From the NCBI GenBank assembly GCA_963666485.2, contig CAXXUO010000001.1, forward strand, positions 960,001 to 1,024,000: 64,000 nucleotides of DNA. Reading direction: 5' to 3'. Source of the stretch: Syntrophorhabdaceae bacterium (GTDB lineage Bacteria > Desulfobacterota > Syntrophorhabdia > Syntrophorhabdales > Syntrophorhabdaceae). The notes under the pieces are model-generated. The model was not told where the DNA came from and did not search any database. It worked only from the letters and a program-made list of their open reading frames with translations. The translations under genes were made by a program, and so were the position numbers. This document shows, piece after piece, positions 7,233 to 29,082 of the stretch (position 1 is its first letter; every line of letters begins with the position of its first letter).

Positions 7233-8801
7233 ATGGACATACCGTATAAACCTTTTACGATCCTGGTCGTCGGGTCTTTCGCGCCAATCCCGGACGGGCC
7301 GCAGCGCGTGAAGATCCTCCCGGTCGATACCGTGAATGAAAGCCTGTCAGCACTCCGCCCGGCGGTATGGATACCGGTTGTGAAAGAGATATGCCCGGCC
7401 GGCGGTGTCGGGATATCGCCCGAAAAGATGAAGGACTTCACGCCGCAGGGCATGATGGGCCAGGTCGCATACCTGAAAGACCTCGGTGATGCACGGGATG
7501 TGATCACACGGTCGGCAGGCATGCCGCCGGAGAACGTAGCCGCGGCCATCGGTGAGAAGTGGCCCGAACTGCCCCTTGACCTCACAATCCCCCCCGCAGC
7601 GGCCAGGTCACAGTCGGGCACTGTCGACAACATCCTGTCCATGGTTGCCTCCGAAGGAAGTTCGGGCACTGTCAGTCACGGCGCCATGGAAGGCTCCCGG
7701 GCCTTATCGGTCCAGATCGAGAGGCTCATCGCCGGCGTCATGACGGCGATCTTTTCAGATGGATCTTTCCGGGAGCTCGAGGCCGCCTGGCGCGGTATCG
7801 AGCTCATCACAAAGCAGGGGCCTGCCGGCGGTACGAAAGAGACGCGCCTCGCGATCGTGAACACGCCCCGGGACGGGCTCGTCGACGCCCTGAGAGAACT
7901 TGGAGAAGTGCTGGAGAATGACCCGCCCGACCTTATGCTCGTCGACTTTGTCTTCGACAATTCCCCCGTCAGTATGGAATTGCTCGAAGAGGCGGCATCC
8001 TTGGCCCAAAACCTCATCGTCCCCGCAGTCGTCAACGCTTCGGCCGGCTTTCTCGGCCTGAAAGACTGGAACGAGATACATCACCTGCCGATGCTCGCTC
8101 ATTACATAGAGGACAACCCCGTTTACGCACAATGGTCGAAACTGCGCAAGGACCCGCGCGCGAACTGGCTCGCTGCCGCCTGCAACGAACTCGGCACCCG
8201 GCAGGCGTATGAAAAGGATTCAGGTGTCCGTGGTGTCAGCTTTGAGGAAGGGTCCCCGCCATGGGTCCATCCGGTCTATGCAGTCGGTGCGCTTGCCGCT
8301 CAGAGTCTAGCGCTTTCCGGATGGCCGTCGCGCCTTGTCGATGTGCAGAATGTGCGTCTCGAGGGCCTCGCCCTCCACAGATTCGAGGACGGCACAGAGG
8401 GTTCCACTGCGGCGGTGTTCTCTGTCGACAGGGTGCGCCAGCTTGGCGATATCGGCCTCATGCCGCTCACCGGGGCCGCCATGAAGGACATGGCCTTCCT
8501 TCCCTCGGCCCGGGCCATATCGGGGGAGGCGCTTGCCTTCCAGATGTTCTTCTCCCGCCTGACCGGGTTTCTCATCCGCTTGCGCGAAGAGACCGGGGCG
8601 TCAATACTTGAGGATGATGCCGCATCCTGGTTGACCCGGGCTTTTGAGACTTTCTTTCGCCTCACGGGCGGAACTCAACCGGGGGACCTGTCCGTCAGCG
8701 CATCGATGAATGAGGGAAGGCTGATATTCACAATAAGCCTTACCCCTCCGGCGACGATCTTAAGCGGTACAAGGAGGATATCATTCACATTCGCCTGGTA
8801 G
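7233..8801 (+). CDS. Divergent sheath-related protein, TssB-like N-terminus fused to TssC-like domain
   Basis: N-term PFTILVVGSF...MKDFTPQGMMGQVAYLKDL resembles TssB/VipA; IERLIAGVMTAIFSDGSFRELEAAWRGIELI and WSKLRKDPRANWL resemble TssC/VipB. Confidence 0.7.
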   Translation: MDIPYKPFTILVVGSFAPIPDGPQRVKILPVDTVNESLSALRPAVWIPVVKEICPAGGVGISPEKMKDFTPQGMMGQVAYLKDLGDARDVITRSAGMPPENVAAAIGEKWPELPLDLTIPPAAARSQSGTVDNILSMVASEGSSGTVSHGAMEGSRALSVQIERLIAGVMTAIFSDGSFRELEAAWRGIELITKQGPAGGTKETRLAIVNTPRDGLVDALRELGEVLENDPPDLMLVDFVFDNSPVSMELLEEAASLAQNLIVPAVVNASAGFLGLKDWNEIHHLPMLAHYIEDNPVYAQWSKLRKDPRANWLAAACNELGTRQAYEKDSGVRGVSFEEGSPPWVHPVYAVGALAAQSLALSGWPSRLVDVQNVRLEGLALHRFEDGTEGSTAAVFSVDRVRQLGDIGLMPLTGAAMKDMAFLPSARAISGEALAFQMFFSRLTGFLIRLREETGASILEDDAASWLTRAFETFFRLTGGTQPGDLSVSASMNEGRLIFTISLTPPATILSGTRRISFTFAW

Positions 8802-9680: not shown

Positions 9681-11111
9681 GGCCAGTGATGAACTACCTC
9701 ACCACCACAAAGTTCTCTTTCTCCTCCGATGCCCTGCCCCCGGACACGTTCGGTGTTGTGAGGTTCGCCGGGTCGGAGGGCCTGTCCGAGTGCTACACCT
9801 TCGAGGTCACCCTCGTGTCGGACAACCTGGAGATAGACCTCCAGGCGGTGATGGAGAACCCTGCACGGCTCACGGTCCACCGGTCGGAGGGGGACGACGT
9901 CTCCTGGCGCGGCATCCTTCTGTCCTTCGAGCAGCTTCACGAGGTGGACAAGCTCGCCTTTTACCGGGCCCACCTCGTACCGAGACTGACATGGCTCTCC
10001 TTCACGCAGCACAACCAGGTCTTCCTCGACAAGTCGGTCCCGGAGATCATCGAGGGGTGTTTGAAGGACGGGGGACTCACGGGTGCGGACTTCGAGATGC
10101 GGCTTCAGGGCTCCTACGACCCCATCGAGTACGTCTGCCAGTACGGAGAGAGCCACCTTAACTTCATCTCCCGGTGGTGTGAGAGGGAGGGGATCTACTA
10201 CTTCTTCGAGCAGACGGACCAGGGGGAGAAGGTTATCTTCACCGATACCCAGATATCCCATGTGCCGCTCACCCAGGGGATGAACCTCACCTACTCTCCC
10301 CCTTCGGGGCTCGAGACGGGCCACGAGAGGGAGATCGTCCGGTCCTTCCACTGCAGGATGAACTTAACGCCCCAGAGCGTGCTTTTAAAGGACTACAACT
10401 ACCGCAAGCCCTCCCTCGACGTGTCGGGGAACGCGGACGTGGACGCGAAGGGGCGGGGCCAGGTCTACTCCTACGGGGACCACATCAGGACGCCCGAGGA
10501 GGGGACGAGGATAGCGAAGATCAAGGCCGAGGCGCTCCTCAGCAGGAAGGAGGTCTTCGAGGGCGAGGGGTCTGTCCCCTACATGGAGCCGGGGTACACC
10601 TTCACGCTGAAAGACCACTACCGGAAGAACTTCAACCAGTCCTACCTCGTCACCGGGGTGAGCCACGAGGGGAACCAGACGGGGTACCTTATCGCGGGCA
10701 TCACCGCGGGGGACGAACAGAGAGGGGTGTGGTACAGGAACTCCTTCTCCTCCATCGTGTCCACCGTCCAGTTCCGGCCTGAGCAGAAGTCCCAAAAGCC
10801 CCGGATCCCGGGGACGCTGACGGCGAAGGTCGACGCGGCGGGGTCCGGGCAGTACGCGGAGCTCGACAGCCAGGGAAGGTACACGGTCATCGTCCCCTTC
10901 GACACGTCGGGAAGGAAGGACGGGAAGGCCTCCGCCCCCGTACGGATGGCACAGCCCTACGCGGGGGGAGACCACGGGATGCACTTCCCCCTCCACAAGG
11001 GGACGGAGGTCCTGCTGACCTTCATAGAGGGGGACCCGGACAGGCCGATCATACAGTCGGCGGTGCCGAACCCGGAGCACCCGAGCCCGGTCAACGCGAA
11101 CAACGAGACCA
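9681..11111 (+). repeat. Long direct repeat copy 1 (vgrG 5' part; matches 13656-15086, and 15938-17360 from the ATG)
   Basis: Identical translations in several frames; breakpoint after AACGAGACCA. Confidence 0.93.
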
Positions 11112-13664
11112 AGTCGATGATAACAACGGCAAGCGGCAACAAGATACACATAGAAGACCGGGAGGGCTCTGAACGCATCCTTCTCCACACGCCGAAACAG
11201 AACACCTTTTACAGAATAGGTGCGCACAACGACCCCTCCCTCGACGATGAACCGCCTCCAACACAGACCCCGACCGAAGAAGAGACCCAGGAGGATGACG
11301 ACGACCGCAAGGCCGGGTTCGTTCCCCTTGACGACTCGAGACCTTCCGGCGTTTACGGAGCTGCAGGGGCTGCCGCCGGGGCTGCCGCGACCAGCGGCGG
11401 AGATGGGGGTGACGACACCCCGCCGACACCGACGGAAACTGTTACTGTTACCCAGACCGTAACTCCCACGCAAACTGTTACACCGACGCAGACTCAAACC
11501 GCTACTCCTACGGAAACTCAAACCGTCACGCCGACGCAGACGGTGACGCCCACTCAGACTGTTACTCCTACGGAAACGGTCACTCCGACGGAGACGGTGA
11601 CACCGACGCAGACTGTTACGCCTACGGAGACGGTCACTCCGACGCAGACCGTGACACCGACGCAGACTGAGACCGTTACGCCTACTCAAACCGTCACACC
11701 GACGGAGACGGTGACGCCAACGCAGACGGTGACGCCTACGGAGACGGTGACGCCGACCCAGACTGTTACGCCTACGCAGACAGAGACGGTGACGCCAACG
11801 CAAACACAGACGGTGACGCCGACCCAGACTGAGACCGTTACGCCTACTCAAACCGTCACTCCGACGGAGACGGTGACGCCTACGCAGACGGTGACGCCTA
11901 CGGAGACGGTGACGCCGACCCAGACTGTTACGCCTACGCAGACAGAGACGGTTACGCCAACGCAAACACAGACGGTGACGCCGACCCAGACTGAGACTGT
12001 TACGCCTACTCAAACCGTTACACCTACGGAGACGGTGACGCCCACCCAGACTGAGACTGTTACGCCTACTGAGACTGTTACGCCGACCCAGACTGTTACG
12101 CCTACGCAGACAGAGACGGTTACGCCAACGCAAACAGAGACGGTGACGCCGACCCAGACTGAGACCGTTACGCCTACTCAAACCGTTACGCCTACTCAAA
12201 CCGTTACGCCTACGGAGACGGTCACTCCGACGCAAACAGTAACCCCTACGCAGACAGAGACGGTCACTCCGACGCAAACCGTTACGCCGACCCAGACTGA
12301 GACCGTTACGCCTACTCAAACCGTTACACCTACGGAGACGGTGACGCCCACCCAGACTGAGACTGTTACGCCTACTGAGACTGTTACGCCGACCCAGACT
12401 GTTACGCCTACGCAGACAGAGACGGTTACGCCAACGCAAACAGAGACGGTGACGCCGACCCAGACTGAGACCGTTACGCCTACTCAAACCGTTACGCCTA
12501 CGGAGACGGTCACTCCGACGCAAACAGTAACCCCTACGCAGACAGAGACGGTCACTCCGACGCAAACCGTTACGCCGACCCAGACTGAGACCGTTACGCC
12601 TACTCAAACCGTCACTCCGACGGAGACGGTGACACCGACGCAGACCGTGACGCCTACGGAGACGGTCACTCCGACGCAGACCGTTACGCCTACAGAGACG
12701 GTTACGCCAACGCAAACACAGACGGTGACGCCGACCCAGACTGAGACTGTTACGCCTACTCAAACCGTTACACCTACGGAGACGGTGACGCCCACCCAGA
12801 CTGAGACTGTTACGCCTACTGAGACTGTTACGCCTACTCAAACCGTTACACCTACGGAGACCCAAACTGTCACGCCAACACAGACCGTGACGCCTACGGA
12901 GACGGTTACCCCGACACCGACCCAGACTGTCACTCCGACACCGACCCAGACTGTCACTCCGACACCGACGGTCACGACGGCGGAGCCAACCACCGAAGAG
13001 TCGAAGCCGGGGCCCGAGGACTGGGGGAACTGGGGAATTGCCAAAAAAACTAAAGGTTTCTTTGATATCCGCGCCGCCACGGAGAATGAAATCGTGATCG
13101 GCGAGTCCATAGAGGCCATCCTGGGACTCAGAAACGAATGGGCCCTCGTTCTCGCCGTCAACGCCGCCCTCGCAGGTGTCTGCGAGGTCCAGGTCCCGAA
13201 ACACAGGTTTCTCCACAACTTCAAACAGGTGGTGGAGAAGGACCACCTCGAGGCCAACGAGATACAAACGGTCCAGCACGGTATCCAGACCCGCTATACC
13301 GACAAGCTCCAGAACATCCGCGGGGCCCTGACCCACGTCTACGCCGACAGGCTGGATGCTCTTGACCGGTCTTCCCAGACGGCCGGTCAAAACGTCGTCG
13401 CCCTCGGCAACCATACCCAGGCCCTCGAGAATGTGGTGCAAACGGAAGGGCAGGTCGTCCAGTCGACCGTTGATGCCCTCCATGCCATGGGCAACCAGAT
13501 GCAGACGGCGGGCAAACCAGATGCAGACGGCGGGGCAAAGAATACGGGGCTCGGGCACGATCATGAGGGACGAGGGCGTTCGGCTCAATCAAACCAACAC
13601 CCAACAGGTCGAGGTGGCGGCCGTGGGGCTGCATAATGCCGGCGTCATATTCGAGGGCCAGTGA
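9689..13664 (+). CDS. vgrG: T6SS spike protein VgrG1 with ~525-aa Thr/Pro-rich insertion; apparent +1 frameshift near 13514-13516 (uncorrected ORF ends 13636)
   Basis: VgrG motifs GSEGLSECYTFEV, YVCQYGESHLNFISRWCEREGIYYFF, HFPLHKGTEVLLTFIEGDPDRPII; alternative frame ends with TGA overlapping the next ATG. Confidence 0.9.
11417..12995 (+). repeat. Coding tandem repeat of 18/24-bp units encoding (TVTPTQ/TVTPTE/TVTPTQTE)n
   Basis: Directly visible; region encodes almost only T, P, V, Q, E. Confidence 0.98.
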
Positions 13665-15211
13665 TGAACTACCTCACCACCACAAAGTTCTCTTTCTCCT
13701 CCGATGCCCTGCCCCCGGACACGTTCGGTGTTGTGAGGTTCGCCGGGTCGGAGGGCCTGTCCGAGTGCTACACCTTCGAGGTCACCCTCGTGTCGGACAA
13801 CCTGGAGATAGACCTCCAGGCGGTGATGGAGAACCCTGCACGGCTCACGGTCCACCGGTCGGAGGGGGACGACGTCTCCTGGCGCGGCATCCTTCTGTCC
13901 TTCGAGCAGCTTCACGAGGTGGACAAGCTCGCCTTTTACCGGGCCCACCTCGTACCGAGACTGACATGGCTCTCCTTCACGCAGCACAACCAGGTCTTCC
14001 TCGACAAGTCGGTCCCGGAGATCATCGAGGGGTGTTTGAAGGACGGGGGACTCACGGGTGCGGACTTCGAGATGCGGCTTCAGGGCTCCTACGACCCCAT
14101 CGAGTACGTCTGCCAGTACGGAGAGAGCCACCTTAACTTCATCTCCCGGTGGTGTGAGAGGGAGGGGATCTACTACTTCTTCGAGCAGACGGACCAGGGG
14201 GAGAAGGTTATCTTCACCGATACCCAGATATCCCATGTGCCGCTCACCCAGGGGATGAACCTCACCTACTCTCCCCCTTCGGGGCTCGAGACGGGCCACG
14301 AGAGGGAGATCGTCCGGTCCTTCCACTGCAGGATGAACTTAACGCCCCAGAGCGTGCTTTTAAAGGACTACAACTACCGCAAGCCCTCCCTCGACGTGTC
14401 GGGGAACGCGGACGTGGACGCGAAGGGGCGGGGCCAGGTCTACTCCTACGGGGACCACATCAGGACGCCCGAGGAGGGGACGAGGATAGCGAAGATCAAG
14501 GCCGAGGCGCTCCTCAGCAGGAAGGAGGTCTTCGAGGGCGAGGGGTCTGTCCCCTACATGGAGCCGGGGTACACCTTCACGCTGAAAGACCACTACCGGA
14601 AGAACTTCAACCAGTCCTACCTCGTCACCGGGGTGAGCCACGAGGGGAACCAGACGGGGTACCTTATCGCGGGCATCACCGCGGGGGACGAACAGAGAGG
14701 GGTGTGGTACAGGAACTCCTTCTCCTCCATCGTGTCCACCGTCCAGTTCCGGCCTGAGCAGAAGTCCCAAAAGCCCCGGATCCCGGGGACGCTGACGGCG
14801 AAGGTCGACGCGGCGGGGTCCGGGCAGTACGCGGAGCTCGACAGCCAGGGAAGGTACACGGTCATCGTCCCCTTCGACACGTCGGGAAGGAAGGACGGGA
14901 AGGCCTCCGCCCCCGTACGGATGGCACAGCCCTACGCGGGGGGAGACCACGGGATGCACTTCCCCCTCCACAAGGGGACGGAGGTCCTGCTGACCTTCAT
15001 AGAGGGGGACCCGGACAGGCCGATCATACAGTCGGCGGTGCCGAACCCGGAGCACCCGAGCCCGGTCAACGCGAACAACGAGACCATGTCGGCGATCACC
15101 ACAGCCGGGGGGAACAAGATCCACATCGAGGACAAGGAGGGGACGGAGAGGATCCTCATGCACTCCCCGAACCAGAAGAGCTTCATCCGTGTCGGGGCGC
15201 CGAACGACCCC
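13656..15211 (+). repeat. Long direct repeat copy 2 (13664-15211 matches 15938-17485)
   Basis: Match ends after GCGCCGAACGACCCC. Confidence 0.93.
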
Positions 15212-15916
15212 TCCTGGTGGAGCGACTACAAGGACCAGTGGAAGGAGTACGCCGACGGCGATGAATGGAACGCCCCTCCCGTCTTTGGCGGGATTGCCGA
15301 GAGCACCCAGGGGCTCCTCGACATCGAAACGAAGTGGGAGTTTTCCTTAATACTGGGCGAGTCCACGTCCACCGTTGCCGGGTTCCGCATGTGGTTCACC
15401 CTCCTTGCCGCCGTCGATGGCGTGCTCGGGGGAAGGGTGAACCTCCAGGCGCCCGACTCCTGGGCCCTGAAGAACGGCCATCACGAGGACGGTATTGACA
15501 ACCTGTACACGGCGGTCCGGGGCATTGTGTCTGCGGGGATCCGCCAGGACCTCGCCGTTGAGCGGAACGAACTGCTCGTTCACGAACGGGACCTGACCGT
15601 CCAGCGGACCCAGGCCGTGGGGAATCAAACGCAGCTCAGGACACAGACGATCGACAACAACGTCCAGAGGATCGACACGGCCCTGCAGAACACGCAGGCC
15701 CACGCGCAAACCCTGGTAACGACGGGAAACAACATCCGCGATTCGATCCAGGAGATCAACAGCATGGGCGCGCACCTGGATACCGCAGGCGACCATATGT
15801 CGAACGCGCTGCAGAACACCGAAACCCTTGGGGCCGCCGTCGAGAATGCGGGACTCTCCGTCACCGACGCCTCGGCCAATCTCACGCAGGCGGGAGGGCT
15901 TTTGCTGCGCAACTAG
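13664..15916 (+). CDS. vgrG: T6SS spike protein VgrG2
   Basis: N-terminal ~474 aa identical to VgrG1; own C-terminal tail. Confidence 0.95.
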   Translation: MNYLTTTKFSFSSDALPPDTFGVVRFAGSEGLSECYTFEVTLVSDNLEIDLQAVMENPARLTVHRSEGDDVSWRGILLSFEQLHEVDKLAFYRAHLVPRLTWLSFTQHNQVFLDKSVPEIIEGCLKDGGLTGADFEMRLQGSYDPIEYVCQYGESHLNFISRWCEREGIYYFFEQTDQGEKVIFTDTQISHVPLTQGMNLTYSPPSGLETGHEREIVRSFHCRMNLTPQSVLLKDYNYRKPSLDVSGNADVDAKGRGQVYSYGDHIRTPEEGTRIAKIKAEALLSRKEVFEGEGSVPYMEPGYTFTLKDHYRKNFNQSYLVTGVSHEGNQTGYLIAGITAGDEQRGVWYRNSFSSIVSTVQFRPEQKSQKPRIPGTLTAKVDAAGSGQYAELDSQGRYTVIVPFDTSGRKDGKASAPVRMAQPYAGGDHGMHFPLHKGTEVLLTFIEGDPDRPIIQSAVPNPEHPSPVNANNETMSAITTAGGNKIHIEDKEGTERILMHSPNQKSFIRVGAPNDPSWWSDYKDQWKEYADGDEWNAPPVFGGIAESTQGLLDIETKWEFSLILGESTSTVAGFRMWFTLLAAVDGVLGGRVNLQAPDSWALKNGHHEDGIDNLYTAVRGIVSAGIRQDLAVERNELLVHERDLTVQRTQAVGNQTQLRTQTIDNNVQRIDTALQNTQAHAQTLVTTGNNIRDSIQEINSMGAHLDTAGDHMSNALQNTETLGAAVENAGLSVTDASANLTQAGGLLLRN

Positions 15917-15937
15917 CGCAAAAGGAACTGAAAAGCC

Positions 15938-17485
15938 ATGAACTACCTCACCACCACAAAGTTCTCTTTCTCCTCCGATGCCCTGCCCCCGGACACGTTC
16001 GGTGTTGTGAGGTTCGCCGGGTCGGAGGGCCTGTCCGAGTGCTACACCTTCGAGGTCACCCTCGTGTCGGACAACCTGGAGATAGACCTCCAGGCGGTGA
16101 TGGAGAACCCTGCACGGCTCACGGTCCACCGGTCGGAGGGGGACGACGTCTCCTGGCGCGGCATCCTTCTGTCCTTCGAGCAGCTTCACGAGGTGGACAA
16201 GCTCGCCTTTTACCGGGCCCACCTCGTACCGAGACTGACATGGCTCTCCTTCACGCAGCACAACCAGGTCTTCCTCGACAAGTCGGTCCCGGAGATCATC
16301 GAGGGGTGTTTGAAGGACGGGGGACTCACGGGTGCGGACTTCGAGATGCGGCTTCAGGGCTCCTACGACCCCATCGAGTACGTCTGCCAGTACGGAGAGA
16401 GCCACCTTAACTTCATCTCCCGGTGGTGTGAGAGGGAGGGGATCTACTACTTCTTCGAGCAGACGGACCAGGGGGAGAAGGTTATCTTCACCGATACCCA
16501 GATATCCCATGTGCCGCTCACCCAGGGGATGAACCTCACCTACTCTCCCCCTTCGGGGCTCGAGACGGGCCACGAGAGGGAGATCGTCCGGTCCTTCCAC
16601 TGCAGGATGAACTTAACGCCCCAGAGCGTGCTTTTAAAGGACTACAACTACCGCAAGCCCTCCCTCGACGTGTCGGGGAACGCGGACGTGGACGCGAAGG
16701 GGCGGGGCCAGGTCTACTCCTACGGGGACCACATCAGGACGCCCGAGGAGGGGACGAGGATAGCGAAGATCAAGGCCGAGGCGCTCCTCAGCAGGAAGGA
16801 GGTCTTCGAGGGCGAGGGGTCTGTCCCCTACATGGAGCCGGGGTACACCTTCACGCTGAAAGACCACTACCGGAAGAACTTCAACCAGTCCTACCTCGTC
16901 ACCGGGGTGAGCCACGAGGGGAACCAGACGGGGTACCTTATCGCGGGCATCACCGCGGGGGACGAACAGAGAGGGGTGTGGTACAGGAACTCCTTCTCCT
17001 CCATCGTGTCCACCGTCCAGTTCCGGCCTGAGCAGAAGTCCCAAAAGCCCCGGATCCCGGGGACGCTGACGGCGAAGGTCGACGCGGCGGGGTCCGGGCA
17101 GTACGCGGAGCTCGACAGCCAGGGAAGGTACACGGTCATCGTCCCCTTCGACACGTCGGGAAGGAAGGACGGGAAGGCCTCCGCCCCCGTACGGATGGCA
17201 CAGCCCTACGCGGGGGGAGACCACGGGATGCACTTCCCCCTCCACAAGGGGACGGAGGTCCTGCTGACCTTCATAGAGGGGGACCCGGACAGGCCGATCA
17301 TACAGTCGGCGGTGCCGAACCCGGAGCACCCGAGCCCGGTCAACGCGAACAACGAGACCATGTCGGCGATCACCACAGCCGGGGGGAACAAGATCCACAT
17401 CGAGGACAAGGAGGGGACGGAGAGGATCCTCATGCACTCCCCGAACCAGAAGAGCTTCATCCGTGTCGGGGCGCCGAACGACCCC
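15938..17485 (+). repeat. Long direct repeat copy 3
   Basis: 1548 bp apparently identical to copy 2 from the ATG. Confidence 0.93.
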
Positions 17486-18151
17486 CCTTCAGATTATGCC
17501 GGGTTCAACATTTTCCCCGGTGTCGAAGGGATCAAGGAGCAGACCGACGGGGCCCTCGATATGACCGTCGGGTTCAAGAACGAGGTGATCCTGGGCTTGA
17601 TCACATCCATCGTATGCGGCTTCCGCGGGTGGTTCACGGTGGGATACCTCGTCGACATGTGCCTGGGCGGCAAGCTGGAGGTCCAGTTTCCCGAAATCTT
17701 TAATATACGGAATTTTCACGTGAATGTTAATGCTGACAACTGGGAGACTTACGCGAGCTGGTCGACGGCGGTCAGGACCTGGTGGCATTTCCTCGGGACG
17801 GAAAGCAAGGTGAAGGGCCAGCTGGTCCGGGCCTGCGAAGATCAGGTCCACACCGCGGAGGGAGATGTAAACGCCCAGATAAACCGGGTCGCGGCGGAGG
17901 AGCGGCGCATCACGACCACCGCGAACTCCGTGAAGACCAACATGCAGACTGTCACAGCCCAGGCAAACCAGATAGAGTCGATGGGCAACCACCTTGTGAC
18001 CGTCGGCGACGGTTTGGTCAGTGCCGGCGCAGAGCTTCAGACAACGGGAAATACGATCCGGCAGAGCGGCCAGGCTGCGCAGCTTGCCGGCACACAGATC
18101 AGGAACGGCGCGACCCTGGTCGATCAGGCGGCGACCCAGGTACAGGGATGA
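15938..18151 (+). CDS. vgrG: T6SS spike protein VgrG3
   Basis: First 516 codons match VgrG2; own C-terminal tail. Confidence 0.95.
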   Translation: MNYLTTTKFSFSSDALPPDTFGVVRFAGSEGLSECYTFEVTLVSDNLEIDLQAVMENPARLTVHRSEGDDVSWRGILLSFEQLHEVDKLAFYRAHLVPRLTWLSFTQHNQVFLDKSVPEIIEGCLKDGGLTGADFEMRLQGSYDPIEYVCQYGESHLNFISRWCEREGIYYFFEQTDQGEKVIFTDTQISHVPLTQGMNLTYSPPSGLETGHEREIVRSFHCRMNLTPQSVLLKDYNYRKPSLDVSGNADVDAKGRGQVYSYGDHIRTPEEGTRIAKIKAEALLSRKEVFEGEGSVPYMEPGYTFTLKDHYRKNFNQSYLVTGVSHEGNQTGYLIAGITAGDEQRGVWYRNSFSSIVSTVQFRPEQKSQKPRIPGTLTAKVDAAGSGQYAELDSQGRYTVIVPFDTSGRKDGKASAPVRMAQPYAGGDHGMHFPLHKGTEVLLTFIEGDPDRPIIQSAVPNPEHPSPVNANNETMSAITTAGGNKIHIEDKEGTERILMHSPNQKSFIRVGAPNDPPSDYAGFNIFPGVEGIKEQTDGALDMTVGFKNEVILGLITSIVCGFRGWFTVGYLVDMCLGGKLEVQFPEIFNIRNFHVNVNADNWETYASWSTAVRTWWHFLGTESKVKGQLVRACEDQVHTAEGDVNAQINRVAAEERRITTTANSVKTNMQTVTAQANQIESMGNHLVTVGDGLVSAGAELQTTGNTIRQSGQAAQLAGTQIRNGATLVDQAATQVQG

Positions 18152-18152
18152 T

Positions 18153-21100
18153 ATGAGAGTTATCAAGGAATCGGAACACTGCCTCCTCCTCAACTACTTC
18201 GGCCTTATGAACAGGTATTACCTTGCCATAACGGTCATGACCTACTTCGACTTCACGGACCCCGTCAACCCCCTTGCCGAAAAGGAGATGTGGCCCTTCG
18301 TACAGGGAGAGCTCGGCAAGGACGCCGTCCTCGACATGGCCATGCCCAAGCCGAAGGGTGAGCTGCTTGTCTGGGGCAGGTGCTTTTCGCCCGACGGGGA
18401 GCCCCGCGGCGCTTCACAGGTAAGCGTGCGCCTCGGTCCCATCGAGAAGCACCTCTACGTCTTCGGGAACCGCTACTGGAGGAAGGCCGGCGGGGCGCGA
18501 TTCAGCATAACCGAGCCGGATCCTTTCGTCGATATGCCCCTCACCTACGACCGGGCGTTCGGAGGCGGCGGTTTCGACAGGAATCCCCTGGGCAGGGGCG
18601 CGGCGCCCGTCACGACCTCCTCCGGTGCACAGTCGCACCCGCTCCCGAACGTCGAGGACCCGCGCCATCTCGTCGGTTCGCCTTCCGACCACCCCGAACC
18701 GGCGGGCTTAGCCCCCCTTGATTACACGTGGCCCCAGCGGGCGAAGAAGCTGGGGACATATGACAATACATGGTTTCAGGAGCGCTGGCCCTTTTACCCC
18801 GATGACATGAACTGGACATACTTCAATGCAGCGCCCGAGGACCAGCAGATCGAAGACTTCTTTGCCGGTACAGAATCCTTCTCTGTCGCCGGGATGCACC
18901 CGAAGGAGCCCCTCGTCGAATCCCGCCTTCCCGGGATCAGGCACCGGTTCTTCGTCAATCAGCTCGCCGATGCAGCAAAACCGGAAGGAGAAACCCTCTT
19001 CAAGGAGGTCCTCACCCACATCGACACCGTCTGGCTCTTTCCCCACGCGAAAAAGGGAATCGCCATATCCCGGGGGACAGCTGAGGTCAAGGATGACGAG
19101 GCCCTCGACATAGCCCACCTCTACGTCGTGAGCGAGCGGGTCGGCGAGCAGCACCCCGGCACCATCGAGAAGTACCACGAGCAGTTCACAAAACAGATAA
19201 ACCGGGCCCTGACCCCCGATATCTCGGCCCAAATGGAAGAGGCGAAGAAGAAGCTTTCCGCCGCCGCAGATACCCTCATGGACCTGCCTGTTCAGATCAA
19301 GGACGAAATAGCGGCACACCTTGGCAAAGCGCCGAAGGCTGCCCGGACGCCCGTCGAGGTGGTGGGGGACTCCCTTGCCCTCATTGACAAGCACAAGCAG
19401 CTCCTCGCCGACAGCGAAAAGAGGATACTGGCGGCAAAGTCTCAGTTCGGCCACATGATGAAGATCGATACGAGCGGGTTCGCCGCAGCCGCGAAGAGCC
19501 TCGAGGAGGCGAAGACGAAGCTTTCCGCCGTGCCGGTCATGCTCGAGGACATCGCGAAGAAAAACGCAGAGAACATGAAGGAACTCAGGGACACGCTCCA
19601 TGAAATATACGACAACAGCGCCTTCTCGAAGGTGAACCCGGGCGCCATGGATGTCGATGCCATTGTCGACATGTACAAGGAGAAGCCCCGGGATCTCTGG
19701 CAGGATTCGGGGATGCGCTTCATCGAGAAGTGCCGGGAAGAACTGCTGCAGGACCCCGCGATGATGGCGGCTTTTCGCTCGTTAGGACTTCGGCCCTATA
19801 CGCTCAAGCGGGCATGGGTCGGGCTGAACAGGCAGGAGGCCCGCTTCGAAAGGGAAGCCTGGGCGCTTAAGCCGGGCAAGGATGCCGCGGACGCCGATAC
19901 CCTCGTGATACCCGCCGGTCTCGTGATACCCCGCTTCGCCGGGGCCTTGATAGACACGATCACGGTGAGGCCTATATTTGAAACCGCCGGGGCCGCCGCC
20001 TCACCGGCATCGCTCGCTCAGGCGTCCCTTGACGGAAGCGGTGACGTTCCCGTCGAAGGGTCGAAGGGGAACGCGATGGTACTCGGCGCCGGGGAGGGGA
20101 AACCCTTCGTCCGTTTCAACGATGAGCTCGAGGCCCTTCTCGCCCGCCAGGAGCTGGGCGACTTCTGTGCCTTCGCGGCCATGAGAGATCCGTCGGCACC
20201 GGCAGACGGAGACCCGAAGAAAGCCCTCAAGAAGACCCCCCAGTTCCTCGTCGCCGTCTACCCCGGTACGAAGGGGAGTGCCCGGACCGCCGATATGCAG
20301 CCCTGGAAAAAGCTCGCCGGGACCGCGGAGCCCCTCGCGCTGCCAAAGGGACGGAACCTTTTCGAGGCGAAAAAGGCCGGGGTCGACATATGGCAATGGA
20401 TAGCCGACGCCTTGAAACCGGCCGTGGCGCCTCCCGCCGAAACGAAACCGAAGGAAGTGGACGTATCGGAACCGGGGGCACTCGCCGCCCTCATCCCCGT
20501 CATCGACGTCAAGGGGCTCATCAAGGGGGTGAAGGACGAGCTTATGGCCCGGATACAGCCAAAGCTCGATCTCATGGCCGCCAAGGAGAAGGAGACCATG
20601 GACCTTCTCCGGAAGGAATTGGCGAAAAAGAATATAAGCCTGGACAAAATGATGGCCAAGGAGCCCCCCAAGGTACCCGAGGGGAAGAACCCCTACGTCT
20701 TTGCCCAGGAGAAATTCACCAAGAATTTTCAGCTAATACGGGAGAAGCTCACGAAACAGGGCACTATGAGCTCCGAGATCGAAAAGAAGATTGCCGAGGC
20801 GGAACGGTCGGGGCAGAAGATACTCGGCGATTCGGCGAAGCTCTACGACGAGGGGATAAAGCGTCTCGCGGCTGACGACGCGAAGATCGCCGCGGGCACC
20901 CCGGACTGGGCAAAGAAGCTCCTTGCCAGGGCCGGTATCGACCCCGAGGACCCTGATCCTTTGAAACCCCTCACTCGCGAAGAGGTGGTGGAGCGCCACA
21001 CGAAGGGCCTTTCCCTCTCGGGCAGGAACATGGCGGGGGCGGACCTCTCCCGTCTCGACCTCACGGGAGCGGACCTCAGGAAGGCGAACCTTCAAAAAAC

Positions 21101-22001
21101 GAACTTCGCGGACGCTGTGCTCGATGGTTCAGATATGTCGGGGGCGCTCGCGACGGAGGCCGACTTCACGAAATCATCCCTGCGGGGGGCAAAGATGGTA
21201 ACGGGAATATTCCAAAAGGCGAAATTTCCCGGGGCCGACATGTCCCGCGCCGACATGACGGGATCCATGATGTCAGAGGCGGACCTGACGGGGGCGAACC
21301 TGACGGGGGCGACCATCGTGAGGACCCTCCTCGAAAAGGCCACCCTGAAGAAAGTCCGGGCCGTGGATTCCACGTCGTCCCAGATCTATCTTCTCAGCGC
21401 GGATATATCCGGCGCCGATTTCACCGGGGCCGACCTCACGAAGGCGGTCTTTCTCAAGGCGACGATCGACGAGGCCAAACTTTCAAAGTCCACCCTGCGC
21501 GAGGCGGCATTCATCGAATCCAAAGGCACGAAGGTCGACCTCTCCGGGGCTGACATGCACAACTCCAGGATATTACAGGGATCCGCGATGACGGAAAGCG
21601 ATTTTACCGGTACGCGCGCCGAGAGGTCGAGCTGGATGAAGTCCGATCTTTCGGGCGGAGACTTCCGCGGCGCCACCATCGAGCGGGCCCTTGTCGAGGG
21701 ATGCGACCTTTCCGGATCGAATTTATCGGGGATCACGGCGAAACAGGCCCGGCTCACCAAATCGAATCTGAGCGACTCCAACCTCGAGGAGATAAACCTT
21801 TTCCAGGGATCCTTGAGGAAGTCAAAGCTTGTGCGGACCGATCTTAAGCGGGCAAACCTTTACGGGGCGGAATTCTACCGCACCGGGGTCGGGGAGACGA
21901 AACTCGATGAGGCGAACCTGAAGATGACCAAACTCCACAAGCGCGAGGATCTGCTGCCGGAGCCGCCGAAGGACGGAAGTGACGATAAGGGGCGGAAGTG
22001 A
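18153..22001 (+). CDS. DUF2169 T6SS adaptor fused to a large insertion and C-terminal pentapeptide repeats
   Basis: LDMAMPKPKGELLVWG, VFGNRYW, MPLTYDRAFGG, LPNVEDP, YFNAAPEDQQ (DUF2169); A(D/N)LxxA repeats at the C-terminus; ATG 18153 just after the vgrG3 stop. Confidence 0.88.
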   Translation: MRVIKESEHCLLLNYFGLMNRYYLAITVMTYFDFTDPVNPLAEKEMWPFVQGELGKDAVLDMAMPKPKGELLVWGRCFSPDGEPRGASQVSVRLGPIEKHLYVFGNRYWRKAGGARFSITEPDPFVDMPLTYDRAFGGGGFDRNPLGRGAAPVTTSSGAQSHPLPNVEDPRHLVGSPSDHPEPAGLAPLDYTWPQRAKKLGTYDNTWFQERWPFYPDDMNWTYFNAAPEDQQIEDFFAGTESFSVAGMHPKEPLVESRLPGIRHRFFVNQLADAAKPEGETLFKEVLTHIDTVWLFPHAKKGIAISRGTAEVKDDEALDIAHLYVVSERVGEQHPGTIEKYHEQFTKQINRALTPDISAQMEEAKKKLSAAADTLMDLPVQIKDEIAAHLGKAPKAARTPVEVVGDSLALIDKHKQLLADSEKRILAAKSQFGHMMKIDTSGFAAAAKSLEEAKTKLSAVPVMLEDIAKKNAENMKELRDTLHEIYDNSAFSKVNPGAMDVDAIVDMYKEKPRDLWQDSGMRFIEKCREELLQDPAMMAAFRSLGLRPYTLKRAWVGLNRQEARFEREAWALKPGKDAADADTLVIPAGLVIPRFAGALIDTITVRPIFETAGAAASPASLAQASLDGSGDVPVEGSKGNAMVLGAGEGKPFVRFNDELEALLARQELGDFCAFAAMRDPSAPADGDPKKALKKTPQFLVAVYPGTKGSARTADMQPWKKLAGTAEPLALPKGRNLFEAKKAGVDIWQWIADALKPAVAPPAETKPKEVDVSEPGALAALIPVIDVKGLIKGVKDELMARIQPKLDLMAAKEKETMDLLRKELAKKNISLDKMMAKEPPKVPEGKNPYVFAQEKFTKNFQLIREKLTKQGTMSSEIEKKIAEAERSGQKILGDSAKLYDEGIKRLAADDAKIAAGTPDWAKKLLARAGIDPEDPDPLKPLTREEVVERHTKGLSLSGRNMAGADLSRLDLTGADLRKANLQKTNFADAVLDGSDMSGALATEADFTKSSLRGAKMVTGIFQKAKFPGADMSRADMTGSMMSEADLTGANLTGATIVRTLLEKATLKKVRAVDSTSSQIYLLSADISGADFTGADLTKAVFLKATIDEAKLSKSTLREAAFIESKGTKVDLSGADMHNSRILQGSAMTESDFTGTRAERSSWMKSDLSGGDFRGATIERALVEGCDLSGSNLSGITAKQARLTKSNLSDSNLEEINLFQGSLRKSKLVRTDLKRANLYGAEFYRTGVGETKLDEANLKMTKLHKREDLLPEPPKDGSDDKGRK

Positions 22002-22005
22002 CGAC

Positions 22006-23046
22006 ATGACGCGGGAAGAACTCTTTGAAGCCATAGCGCGGGACGACACGATAGAGAATGTGGACCTTTCCGGGATGAACCTCGCCGGAGAGGACCTGTC
22101 GGGTGCCCGTTTCGAGGGCGTTTCCTTCAAAGGGGCGGACCTCAGGGGCACGAAGATCATTCGCACCGGCTTCACGGGGTGTGCCTTCGAAGGGGCCAAT
22201 ATGGACGGCGGGAACCTGGAAGGGGCCATATGGATGCGCATGAACCTCTCCGGCGCCATACTCTCCCGGGCGAACCTCAGGAAGGCGGTCCTCAACGGCT
22301 CCGACCTCTCCGGGGCCATACTCACGGGAGCGGACCTGACCCAGGCCGTTATGGACAACGCCAGGTTTGACGGCGCGGACCTTTCCGGCGCCGACGTCTC
22401 CCGGGCGGTCATTCACAAGTCGTCCATGAAGGGGGCGAACCTTAAGGGGGCGAACCTCTTCAAGTCCATTTTCGTGGAGACGGACCTGACGGGGGCGACC
22501 TTCAAGGGGGCACGGATATTCAAGACCTTCCTCAGGGGCTGCTCCCTGACGGGACAGGATTTCCGGGGCGCGACCTTCATCATGGCCCAGGCGGGAGGGG
22601 CGGACATGAAGGGGTGCGATTTCACCAATGCCGAGATCGCCCAGTCAAACTTCATGAATGCCGACATGACGGGGGCGGTCCTGGAAAAGGTCAAGGGCGA
22701 GCGCTCGGTCTTCATGGGGACGAACCTCTCCGGCGTGAGCCTCAAAGGGTCCTATTTGGTCCAGTCCTGTTTCGAGGAGGCGAATCTGAACCTCGCCGAC
22801 CTCTCGGAATGCAACTGTGAGCAGGCGCTTTTCACGAAGGCCTTCTGCCGGGGGGCGAAGTTCGTCGACGTCAATGCGACCTTTGCCGATTTCTCCCACG
22901 CCGATCTGACGGCGGCGGACTTCACGTCTGCCACCCTGACGAGGGCAAAAATGCACCGGGCCATCGAGGAGCATGCGATCTGGGACAAATCTTCGCGAAG
23001 CTCCGCCTACGGCACTGATCCCGATCTGGCAGAGGCAGAGGGGTGA
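22006..23046 (+). CDS. Pentapeptide repeat protein
   Basis: Continuous A(D/N)L(S/T)GA repeats. Confidence 0.93.
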   Translation: MTREELFEAIARDDTIENVDLSGMNLAGEDLSGARFEGVSFKGADLRGTKIIRTGFTGCAFEGANMDGGNLEGAIWMRMNLSGAILSRANLRKAVLNGSDLSGAILTGADLTQAVMDNARFDGADLSGADVSRAVIHKSSMKGANLKGANLFKSIFVETDLTGATFKGARIFKTFLRGCSLTGQDFRGATFIMAQAGGADMKGCDFTNAEIAQSNFMNADMTGAVLEKVKGERSVFMGTNLSGVSLKGSYLVQSCFEEANLNLADLSECNCEQALFTKAFCRGAKFVDVNATFADFSHADLTAADFTSATLTRAKMHRAIEEHAIWDKSSRSSAYGTDPDLAEAEG

Positions 23047-23113: not shown

Positions 23114-23746
23114 ATGAAAGCGGCAGCACAACAAGTTGAAATTCTCCAGCCTGTCCTCGAGTACGGCCTCGTGGCCGGACGTTCGGGGAGCGGTTTCGCC
23201 GTCACCTGCGACCGGGGGGTCTTCGATGCCTCCGTCGCTGTGAGCTGCCTGGTCGCGCCCGAGGCCGGCGACGTGGTCCTCCTTTCCCTGGACGGCAGCG
23301 GCCCCTGCTACATATTGTCAATCCTCGAGAGGCAGGAAGGGGCCCGGGGGAAGACGGAGCTCGCCTTCGACGGCGACGTAAGCCTGACCGTGCGTGACGG
23401 CGCCATGTCCATCAGGAGCGACGAAGCCATATCCCTCGCCTCGAAAGAATTCGAGCTTACAGCCGAGGAGGGGCGCGTCACCCTGGAAAAGAGCTCCTTT
23501 TTCGGGAACCTGGTGGAGAATAACATCGCCCGGATACGGGTCGTCGCCGATTCCCTCGATACCATCGTCCGGCGGGCAGTGCAGAGGTTCACGAACACTT
23601 ACCGGTACGTAGAGGAACACGAGGAGGTGCAGTCGGCCTCGACACGGATGATCGTCGATGGCACTCTCACGATGCACACGAAGAACACGATGCACATCGC
23701 CGAGGGGCACGTGAAGATCGACGCCGAGCAGATCCATCTCGGCTAG
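23114..23746 (+). CDS. DUF3540 family T6SS-associated protein
   Basis: AVSCLVAPEAGDVVLL, YILSILER, C-terminal VKIDAEQIHLG. Confidence 0.88.
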   Translation: MKAAAQQVEILQPVLEYGLVAGRSGSGFAVTCDRGVFDASVAVSCLVAPEAGDVVLLSLDGSGPCYILSILERQEGARGKTELAFDGDVSLTVRDGAMSIRSDEAISLASKEFELTAEEGRVTLEKSSFFGNLVENNIARIRVVADSLDTIVRRAVQRFTNTYRYVEEHEEVQSASTRMIVDGTLTMHTKNTMHIAEGHVKIDAEQIHLG

Positions 23747-27723: not shown

Positions 27724-29082
27724 GATAGTGTCAAGAATCTTTCGCACTTTCCATAGCAACCCCACTAATCCGGTTATGCCTTAATGCTCTCGATGATCTC
27801 CTGCTCAAGCCGGTCCATTTTCAGGTACTGGCTCATTCCCCATTTGGTTCCCGCTATGTGCCTTAGCCGGGCAGCCACGAGCATGAGTGCCGACCTGCCG
27901 TCAGGGAACGACCCGACGACCCGTGTGCGCCGTCTGATCTCCTTCATGATCCGCTCCAGGGGGTTGTTGGTCCTGATCCTCCTCCAGTGCTCGCGGGGGA
28001 ACCCGTAATAGCCGAGCGTCTCGTGGATCCCCTCGTTCAGCATGTCCGCGGCCCTGCCGAGTTTCATCTCCTTGAGCTTCTTCACCACCGCCTCCGCTTT
28101 CTTCTGCGCTTCTTTCCTGTCCTCCTGGGCATGGATCGCCGTGAGCATGGCGACGACCTCCTTGATCTTCCCCCTGGGCACGACGGTGAACACGTTCCGG
28201 TAGAAGTGGACAACGCACCTCTGCCATGAGGCGTCGGGGTAGAACAGGGCGAGACTCTCGACGAGGCCCAGGCACTTGTCGGATATGAAGAGCTCCACAC
28301 CCTTGAGCCCGCGCTCTTTGAGGTAGCGCAGGAAGGATGTCCAGCTGTCCTTGTCCTCCCGCGCACCCTCGGCCACACCCAGGATCTCCCGGTAGCCTTC
28401 GCGGTTCACCCCTATCGCTACAAGGACCGATACGCTCCTGACCTCCCCGCCCCAGGTCCTCTTGAGCGCTATCCCGTCGAGGTAGACGTAGGGATGCTCA
28501 CCTTCGATGGGGCTTAATCTCCACTGCTCGATCGTGGTGTATATCTTTGCGTTGAGGTTCGAGACGGTGCCGGGGCTCACCTTCGTGCCCCAGAGGGCCT
28601 CCGTGATGTCCTCGACCCTCCTTACCGACACCCCGGCCAGGTACATCTCGACGAGGGCCTCTTCCACGGATGATTCCCTTCTTTTGTACCGTTCGATGAT
28701 CGCGGTCTCGAAGGGAAGCGACCTCAGCTTGGGCATCTTGATGTCCACCTCCCCCGCCTTCGTCTGGAGGGTTCGGGTATAATGGCCCGCCCGTGTGTCC
28801 CTGCGTTCCTCCGTGCGCTCGTACCTCTGTGCGTTGCACAGGCGGGACGCCTCTTCATCGAGAAGTGCATTGAGCGTCTCCTGCACCGTTCCCCTTACGA
28901 TCTCTCCCAGGTGGTCCTTTATCTGCGCCTCATTAATCTGGATTATCGTGCCGCCTTCTGTGGTAGACTCTTTCTGGGCCATGGTTCTTCCTCCCTCTGG
29001 TTTTTGTTTTGTGTGGTGCTTAACACTACCAGATTCGAGGTTGCCATGGCTCTTAAATGTGCGAAAAATATTTTACGTTATC
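27724..29082 (-). mobile_element. IS256-family insertion sequence, 1359 bp
   Basis: Imperfect terminal IRs (GATAGTGTCAAGAATCTTTCGCAC vs rc GATAACGTAAAATATTTTTCGCAC); 8-bp direct repeats ATCCTGCG at 27716-27723 and 29083-29090. Confidence 0.93.
27774..28982 (-). CDS. IS256-family (Mutator-type DDE) transposase
   Basis: EMYLAGVSVRRV, YVYLDG, QRCVVHFYRN, RIRTNNPLERIMKEIRRRT. Confidence 0.96.
   Translation of the reverse strand: MAQKESTTEGGTIIQINEAQIKDHLGEIVRGTVQETLNALLDEEASRLCNAQRYERTEERRDTRAGHYTRTLQTKAGEVDIKMPKLRSLPFETAIIERYKRRESSVEEALVEMYLAGVSVRRVEDITEALWGTKVSPGTVSNLNAKIYTTIEQWRLSPIEGEHPYVYLDGIALKRTWGGEVRSVSVLVAIGVNREGYREILGVAEGAREDKDSWTSFLRYLKERGLKGVELFISDKCLGLVESLALFYPDASWQRCVVHFYRNVFTVVPRGKIKEVVAMLTAIHAQEDRKEAQKKAEAVVKKLKEMKLGRAADMLNEGIHETLGYYGFPREHWRRIRTNNPLERIMKEIRRRTRVVGSFPDGRSALMLVAARLRHIAGTKWGMSQYLKMDRLEQEIIESIKA

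Follow-up and report, generated by a model that had tools for sequence, protein, structure and literature searches.

A 599-residue threonine-rich repeat insert at a naturally variable spacer site of a type VI secretion spike protein in a Syntrophorhabdaceae bacterium

The window analysed here, 64,000 nt of a Syntrophorhabdaceae bacterium (assembly GCA_963666485.2, contig CAXXUO010000001.1, positions 960,001 to 1,024,000; coordinates below are those of the window), carries three consecutive vgrG genes of a type VI secretion system (T6SS). The first, vgrG1, encodes a long array of threonine dipeptides, (Thr-X)n, which lies between two flanks homologous to those of its paralogues, at a site that varies in length throughout the family. 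In the reading that we put forward, and that we hold to have about an even chance of being right, an ordinary T6SS spike core is joined to the ~200-aa tail of its family via a natural spacer that has been expanded by repeats.

All three proteins match Phage_GPD PF05954 (E 1e-79 to 2e-80, profile positions 2-303 of 305) and, above cut-off, Phage_base_V PF04717, the gp5-like OB fold; VgrG1 also reaches 367.8 bits against TIGR03361 (cut-off 186). At the DNA level the first 1400 nt of vgrG1 and vgrG2 are 100% identical and vgrG3 differs there by 2 nt, and it is at the first prism strands, somewhere from nt 1400 to 1500, that the three genes begin to diverge. Such a shared core suggests gene conversion, or a recent duplication of the core with swapped tails. 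The near-identical stretches lie at 9686-11105, 13661-15080 and 15935-17354, and it may be noted that contigs of relatives break at the point where this identity ends. An earlier note on this DNA had described one common motif before and another after a variable segment of very different length in the three proteins, and this is indeed what we find. GAHNDP (VgrG1) or GAPNDP (VgrG2 and VgrG3) precedes the segment, GIAKKTKGFFD, GIAESTQGLLD and GIKEQTDGALD follow it in VgrG1, VgrG2 and VgrG3 respectively, and the segment itself takes up aa 518-1116 of VgrG1 (nt 11237-13033), a length of 599 aa, as against 26 aa in VgrG2 and 14 aa in VgrG3. The tail of VgrG1 after the repeat is homologous to those of VgrG2 and VgrG3, as had been proposed, with E 1e-11 and 4e-14 in pairwise alignment (E 2e-20 between VgrG2 and VgrG3); the three pairs align over ~190-200 aa with 24-29% identity. 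A Pfam search of the tails and the insert with E up to 10 gave no family over cut-off, so that no enzymatic, toxin or adaptor domain is recognised in them.

That the repeat is internal to vgrG1 is borne out by the two homologous flanks, which are read in one frame, and by the presence of both junctions in read-derived contigs. Logan contigs of three runs (X20, X21 and X23) of one sample, probably the source of the window assembly and hence not independent of it, were compared over 11100-13720. A 527-nt contig spans 11100-11608, from the VgrG1-specific core into the array, and a 745-nt contig spans 12940-13685, from the array through the tail to the start of vgrG2, each with 0 mismatching letters. 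A further run with the same species label, X24, contributed no matching raw reads and carries no weight here. The 1.56-kb array and both junctions stay in frame. The features of vgrG1 and of the genes that follow it are collected in Table 1.

Table 1. Features of vgrG1 and of the downstream genes in the window
Feature	Position (nt)	Strand	Remarks
vgrG1	9686-13636	+	1316 aa as the window reads; read-derived contigs extend the frame to a stop at 13662-13664
VgrG1 conserved core, aa 1-517	9686-11236	+	gp27-like domain, OB fold, first beta-prism strands; ends with GAHNDP
Insert leader, aa 518-577	11237-11416	+	acidic Pro/Thr/Glu/Asp stretch, then Gly/Ala-rich stretch
(Thr-X)n array, aa 578-1098, 521 aa	11417-12979	+	80 units ending TP
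Junction AEPTTEESKPGPEDWGNW into tail	12980-13033	+	contains W; similar in the distant homologue P0164
VgrG1 tail, aa 1117-1316	13034-13636	+	homologous to VgrG2/3 tails; beta-rich ~60 aa, then helix-prone region with Gly heptads
Extra base (A)	13514	+	in the second copy of a 21/22-nt tandem duplication (window 13490-13535) encoding GNQMQTA twice
vgrG2	13661-15916	+	751 aa (database form 750 aa); spacer aa 518-543 = nt 15212-15289; tail from nt 15290
vgrG3	15938-18151	+	737 aa; spacer aa 517-530 = nt 17486-17527; tail from nt 17528
DUF2169 + pentapeptide-repeat protein (TvpAB-like)	18021-22001	+	PF09937+PF00805
Pentapeptide-repeat protein (TvpB-like)	21979-23046	+	PF00805
DUF3540 protein (TvpC-like)	23114-23746	+	PF12059
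PAAR-like protein, 134 aa	23761-24165	+	PF13665 E 2.9e-33; PIPIPYP motif present
PF11397 'GlcNAc' glycosyltransferase-radical SAM/SPASM fusion, 622 aa	24166-26034	+	Pfam matches

The array is built from the units TQTVTP (30), TETVTP (19) and TQTETVTP (19) with 12 of other kinds, each closing on Thr-Pro. In one phase of the dipeptide Thr occupies 258 of 258 positions, and in the other P (78), V (77), Q (60) and E (41) share the positions with a single A and a single T. A Pro thus recurs every 6-8 residues and the net charge is about -41 (41 Glu). The whole insert has 268 Thr and 90 Pro in its 599 aa, a long Ser/Thr/Pro-rich tandem repeat such as mucin-like domains have, and by residue count its mass is ~60 kDa per chain. 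The tandem repeat score (Tandem Repeats Finder) goes up to 1046, well above anything due to chance, and a six-frame scan of the 3.77-Mb genome found the array to be one of a kind. On the opposite strand an open reading frame (ORF) of 1067 aa runs over the array; it was rejected as a compositional mirror, the VgrG frame being the one that is continuous with both homologous flanks. Strict (T-X)n runs exist elsewhere: among the top 120 matches they were found in large proteins with FlgD-Ig, LamG, T9SS-sorting and DUF11 domains (PF13860, PF13385, PF18962 and PF01345), families which we take to be typical of cell-surface proteins. The longest of these runs has 160 dipeptides as against 259 in VgrG1, and none of the 120 proteins carries a VgrG Pfam domain.

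The codons of the array tell that its protein sequence has probably been maintained. The Thr codons (n=261) are ACG in 125 cases, ACT in 61, ACC in 47 and ACA in 28, with codon positions 1 and 2 invariant throughout. When units are compared at a 6-aa offset, 140 codons are identical, 236 differ synonymously and 139 nonsynonymously, and these last reflect Q/E swaps together with the register shifts at the 8-aa units. Taking 643 long ORFs of the genome as the reference, T-ending codons are enriched 3-5x in the array (ACT 0.23 vs 0.05, CCT 0.42 vs 0.15, GTT 0.49 vs 0.16) and C-ending codons are depleted, a bias to be expected if C-to-T changes occurred at silent sites of the coding strand, or if the array were of foreign origin. 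The residues that C-to-T changes would produce at codon positions 1 and 2, namely Ile, Met, Leu and Ser, are absent from the array. Since synonymous diversity is ample while Thr is invariant and these four residues are missing, the array appears to be under purifying selection at the level of its protein sequence.

We looked at the same site in relatives. With VgrG2 aa 470-751 as the query, a word-index search gave 30 proteins, mostly of 736-749 aa, and a profile search with the three tails against 1.84 billion representatives gave 53. Spacer lengths were taken from a 54-row alignment, 45 rows of which have sequence on both sides of the site. The spacer between the NDP motif and the tail, where insertions in homologues were to be looked for, is of 6-130 aa in these 45 homologues (median 18), and the VgrG1 insert is 4.6x the longest of them. 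Short spacers fall into recurrent types, e.g. S.EEYEGxxFIxxGT, and longer ones are of low complexity, being Ser/Glu/Gly-rich in P0024, Pro/Asp/Lys-rich in P0027, P0028 and P0030, and also of this nature in P0199. The protein P0196 (918 aa, E 3e-4), which stands outside the alignment, may have ~215 aa at the site. Because the same site holds 6-130 aa in the homologues, VgrG1 is the extreme of a natural spacer of the family and not a case of a new insertion site. The homologue P0164 has a Thr/Pro/acidic spacer of 36 aa followed by a tail of the VgrG1 type (27% identity, E 3e-17) with the same W..WGIAxKTKG junction, and it plausibly represents a state like that of VgrG1 before the expansion. Two other homologues carry longer stretches at the site: in P0169 a 14-aa Gly-rich piece precedes ~75 residues that lack both Gly and Pro and abound in Glu, Lys and Gln, and in P0179 ~76 residues without Pro and with a heptad pattern lie behind a short Gly-rich piece. 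Both stretches may be helices.

For the structure of the tail, similarity to 13 solved spike-type chains stops at query residue 474-509, just before GAxNDP, the alignments to the solved VgrG chains 7q5p and 4mtk reaching residue 507-509. An AlphaFold2 (AF2) monomer of VgrG2 aa 380-751, built with 54 alignment rows, gave the OB fold and the first prism strands at pLDDT ~77-91, no confident fold for the spacer and aa 544-611 (mostly pLDDT <=50), and a single long helix of ~140 aa at aa 612-750 (pLDDT 80-94). Foldseek with this model returned VgrG and contractile injection system spikes (VgrG E ~1e-7). For VgrG3 in full length the AF2 monomer, made from 20 rows, was of no use (mean pLDDT 40), and a 20-row tail profile compared with the PDB matched coiled-coil chains only, all weakly (E >= 1e-3). 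In the last 50 aa of the tail a Gly recurs every 7 residues with one hydrophobic position between. An in-line linker is favoured over a loop because the P0169 and P0179 stretches, if they are helices, could hardly return to the spike via a 14-aa linker. On balance we give roughly equal weight to the core ending at GAxNDP, with the tail as a separate trimeric module on a linker, and to its not doing so. In the former case the spacer behaves as a linker to a C-terminal module, which is the usual layout of an 'evolved VgrG' with an oversized linker.

The steps by which this would come about can be sketched as follows. A short ancestral spacer after GAxNDP would have been enlarged by slippage or unequal recombination of 18/24-nt units, to give a (Thr-X)n chain of ~520 residues behind an acidic/Gly-Ala leader. 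Half of this chain is Thr, with Pro every 6-8 residues and Val, Gln and Glu making up much of the rest, and since such a composition gives no hydrophobic core we infer that the thread is extended: a semi-flexible, hydrophilic, acidic, Pro-punctuated and non-globular stalk. There would be one stalk per VgrG1 subunit and three per spike, each linking the core to the tail. The tail, i.e. the beta segment and the long helix, the latter probably a trimeric coiled coil, would be a separable distal module used by the Tvp/PAAR-like tip machinery or by cargo, and the array would be a long flexible spacer or tether between the two, placed outside the rigid prism. The extra length might serve reach, flexibility, tethering or shielding. 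Disorder of the array, its in-line geometry and its function as a tether are inferred, unlike the position of the insert, the homology of its flanks and the variability of the site, which the data show. The earlier note had also raised the question of how so large an insert passes the membrane complex. The ~60 kDa of the insert is, we presume, of the same order as the cargo that rides on VgrG spikes, an example of a side-riding effector being PDB 6sjl, which we take to be the E. coli VgrG-phospholipase complex. With its mass in the range of known effectors, passage via the opened membrane complex would need no special mechanism, and the concern may be softened to that extent.

Several observations weigh against this interpretation, and the alternatives that they bring with them have to be considered. 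With regard to geometry, the ~60 aa after the spacer have a beta-like Gly/hydrophobic rhythm of ~8 residues that resembles a gp5-type prism, the ESM-Atlas neighbours of the tail hint weakly at Gp5_C families (scores 0.82-0.84, below the evidence level of the tool), and in Monlezun et al. (PMC13373197) the studied class III Tvp VgrG is modelled as one long PAAR-capped beta-prism. The tail could then continue the prism, making the spacer a side loop: its beta segment would carry on the trimeric prism, the 599 aa would exit and re-enter at one corner, and three floppy loops of ~60 kDa would hang on the side of the spike. The motifs conserved on both sides of the site (GAPNDP and GIxExTxGxLD), the aromatic W/F/Y cluster that stands directly before the re-entry point, just ahead of the tail start, in many homologues, and the 6-17-aa spacers of many homologues, which allow no separation of core and tail, all speak for such a loop. 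Yet the AF2 prism is not extended past the spacer, where pLDDT falls below 50, no similarity of the tail to solved VgrG prisms was found either in the comparison with structure chains or in that of profiles with the PDB, and the stretches of P0169 and P0179, taken as helices, are ill-suited to a loop that has to come back. We therefore rate the side loop as a possibility to be kept in mind, though an unlikely one. The 'variable loop' of the earlier note accordingly stands as regards the variable site, and its sideways projection from a continuous spike is one of two readings of the geometry.

With regard to length, the array is bridged by no read-derived contig, and its size rests on the window assembly: between 11608 and 12940 the only matches are pieces of 61-109 nt. 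The array could hence be real and its length or internal order wrong, the more so as a gain or loss of whole units preserves the frame and the assembly has at least 1 indel relative to the reads 500 nt away. Nevertheless all of the pieces match with 0 differing letters, both junctions are confirmed, and the higher-order pattern is irregular, unlike that of a collapsed perfect repeat, so we give an error in size a small chance. The indel in question is the base at 13514, which is missing from the contigs of X20 (depth 2) and X21 (depth 7.6), i.e. in 2 of the 2 runs that cover the position, as the contigs of X23 do not reach it. Without this base the reading of vgrG1 continues in the frame of the ORF 13356-13664, the stop of which overlaps the ATG of vgrG2 (TGATG). 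The product of this ORF has Gly-x-x-hydrophobic heptads as at the ends of VgrG2 and VgrG3; it aligns weakly with the end of VgrG3 (E 0.026) and not with VgrG2. As the read-derived contigs lack the base and the frame is restored, the frameshift that vgrG1 seems to have at its 3′ end most likely arose in the assembly.

With regard to distribution, tails of the VgrG1/2/3 type occur in 19 of 96 genomes of the class, and no Thr/Pro array was seen upstream of the tail in the best 16 of the 29 matches outside the own genome. The array may therefore be a peculiarity of this strain, located in one of three paralogues that are redundant, although many contigs of relatives break off within the shared core or close to it, as is expected of multi-copy genes when assemblies are made from short reads, and arrays could be hidden for the same reason. 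In one relative (L006, G028:C44:1-2401) the first vgrG tail lies in an open frame of 1048 aa in the genome search as against 302 aa to the stop on frame extension. No close relatives of the VgrG1 tail were found in the metagenome and genome contig collections, and an additional profile search for its relatives gave one metagenome locus. A word-index search with the tail at E <= 0.001 returned nothing, VgrG1 itself included, so VgrG1 seems to be absent from that collection. These results, together with the identical core in three paralogues and the frameshift as it stands in the window, would suit a selfish or neutral expansion without a role, tolerated in a redundant paralogue, with VgrG1 perhaps poorly functional or non-functional. 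Against this, Thr is kept at 258 of 258 positions, with zero nonsynonymous change at Thr amid abundant synonymous diversity, the frameshift is absent from the contigs of both covering runs, and the frame holds through the junctions and the array from end to end. Mere tolerance of the expansion is thus improbable in our view.

Coming back to the expanded spacer as the preferred explanation, the gene neighbourhood gives the setting in which it would act. Judging by the family matches of the encoded proteins, a canonical T6SS locus reaches into the window with its distal part, where two hcp genes, tssF, tssG, clpV, a VipB-like gene and a cupin gene precede the vgrG trio. A membrane complex is encoded as well, since the 20 kb upstream include the genes for TssJ, TssK, TssL, TssM, TssA and TssB. 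Between clpV and the cupin gene, a 522-aa protein (7233-8801, + strand) has a partial and weak match to the sheath large subunit (PF05943 E 2.4e-28; TIGR03355 78 bits vs a cut-off of 271) and may be a divergent sheath-like accessory protein. A fourth VgrG of the genome (G000:C1:895894-896799, - strand, open frame 945 aa) is found 64 kb upstream of the window, and its C-terminal half is unrelated to those of VgrG1-3. On the 3′ side of vgrG3 the class III Tvp accessory set is complete, in the order TvpAB-, TvpB-, TvpC- and PAAR-like, the last being a DUF4150/PAAR-like protein. In Monlezun et al. (PMC13373197), who defined the accessory system, the set of Serratia marcescens is given as VgrG1-TvpAB-TvpB-TvpC-Paar1, and the PIPY naming is that of Sachar et al. 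(PMC11883445). A VgrG of this system would be expected to have a long beta-prism that takes the place of TvpC in the complex. A BLASTP comparison of the TvpC-like protein with VgrG2, aimed at locating the PAAR-binding end, gave nothing significant. A Mutator-family transposase (PF00872, E 1e-108) lies at 27774-28982 (- strand), ~1.7 kb past the end of the T6SS gene string.

The last gene of this string bears on a further explanation, in which the Thr array receives O-linked sugars while still in the cytoplasm, ahead of firing and perhaps through the PF11397 fusion protein; it would fit either geometry. The PF11397 domain matches at E 2.9e-61 and has a DSH motif, the protein has no signal peptide, and its gene lies 6 kb downstream in the same gene string. 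We presume the family to include cytoplasmic and Golgi polypeptide GlcNAc-transferases that act on hydroxyproline or Thr. Among Gram-positive bacteria, adhesins with Ser-Asp or Ser-rich repeats receive their sugars before they are exported. The fusion of PF11397 and radical SAM is found in 15 of the 96 genomes, all of the genus of the window (14 of 19 genomes besides the own one, against 0 of 76 from other genera), and 9 of the 14 other carriers have it at a distance of ~6 kb from a vgrG tail, with contig and strand in common. It is thus a conserved member of the T6SS locus and a candidate for a new T6SS cargo or modifier. No Thr array was found, however, in the other genomes that carry the fusion, and because the fusion is kept at the locus irrespective of the array, a dedicated role on the array is disfavoured. 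Its ATG follows the stop codon of the PAAR-like gene without a gap. Such an abutting start is an arrangement typical of PAAR-linked cargo effectors, a role with which the distribution of the fusion also agrees. Glycosylation of the array is possible but unsupported, and the mucin-like explanation as a whole is quite doubtful. Its boldest form, that (Thr-X)259 is a functional stalk glycosylated in the cytoplasm by the PF11397-radical SAM enzyme, with which the fired spike holds the neighbour cell, is very improbable. If it were true, the helical tail module would sit on three sugar-coated tethers of ~150 nm, a 'harpoon with a rope', and neighbours would be gripped rather than merely punctured in the dense anaerobic consortia that house relatives of this organism.

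Compared with known systems, VgrG1 is like the evolved VgrGs in having the conserved gp27/gp5 core, a linker and an extra C-terminal module, and the paralogues of the locus differ only there. It departs from them in that its extension has no recognised effector or adaptor domain and that the linker is a low-complexity chain of 599 aa. In phage T4 gp5 (PDB 1k28) a lysozyme domain is held on long linkers between the OB fold and the beta-helix, at the side of the spike. This is a precedent for a large side insert in a cell-puncturing spike, except that the insert of gp5 is a folded enzyme at another site and that of VgrG1 a low-complexity repeat after the first prism strands. The PT linkers of glycoside hydrolases and the Ser-Asp repeats of staphylococcal adhesins are extended spacers and are often glycosylated. 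Thr/Pro and dipeptide-repeat stalks of surface proteins resemble the array in dipeptide periodicity, Pro punctuation and variation in length, but they reach the cell surface by Sec-type export, whereas the array is part of a spike that is assembled in the cytoplasm and fired. The class III Tvp T6SS of Serratia marcescens has the same accessory gene set directly downstream. Its VgrG1 is modelled as one long beta-prism up to the C-terminus (PMC13373197), as opposed to the ~140-residue helix of the AF2 monomer and the variable spacer seen here. A full-text literature search, as judged from titles and the openings of abstracts, gave no published VgrG with an internal repeat rich in Thr or Pro. Low-complexity linkers are of a known kind, as are VgrG paralogues that vary at the C-terminus; what is new is the degree, a selected dipeptide-phase repeat of 599 aa in a spike.

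In the usual view T6SS spikes are rigid needles, and folded domains and adaptors determine how much cargo they can carry. A VgrG1 with ~60 kDa of selected non-globular chain would test how much floppy mass is tolerated by the baseplate and the membrane complex, and it could show whether the tip module needs to be rigidly attached at all. The natural range of the spacer, 6-130 aa in the family and 599 aa here, amounts to a length series, and the site is possibly a permissive one for the engineering of VgrG fusions.

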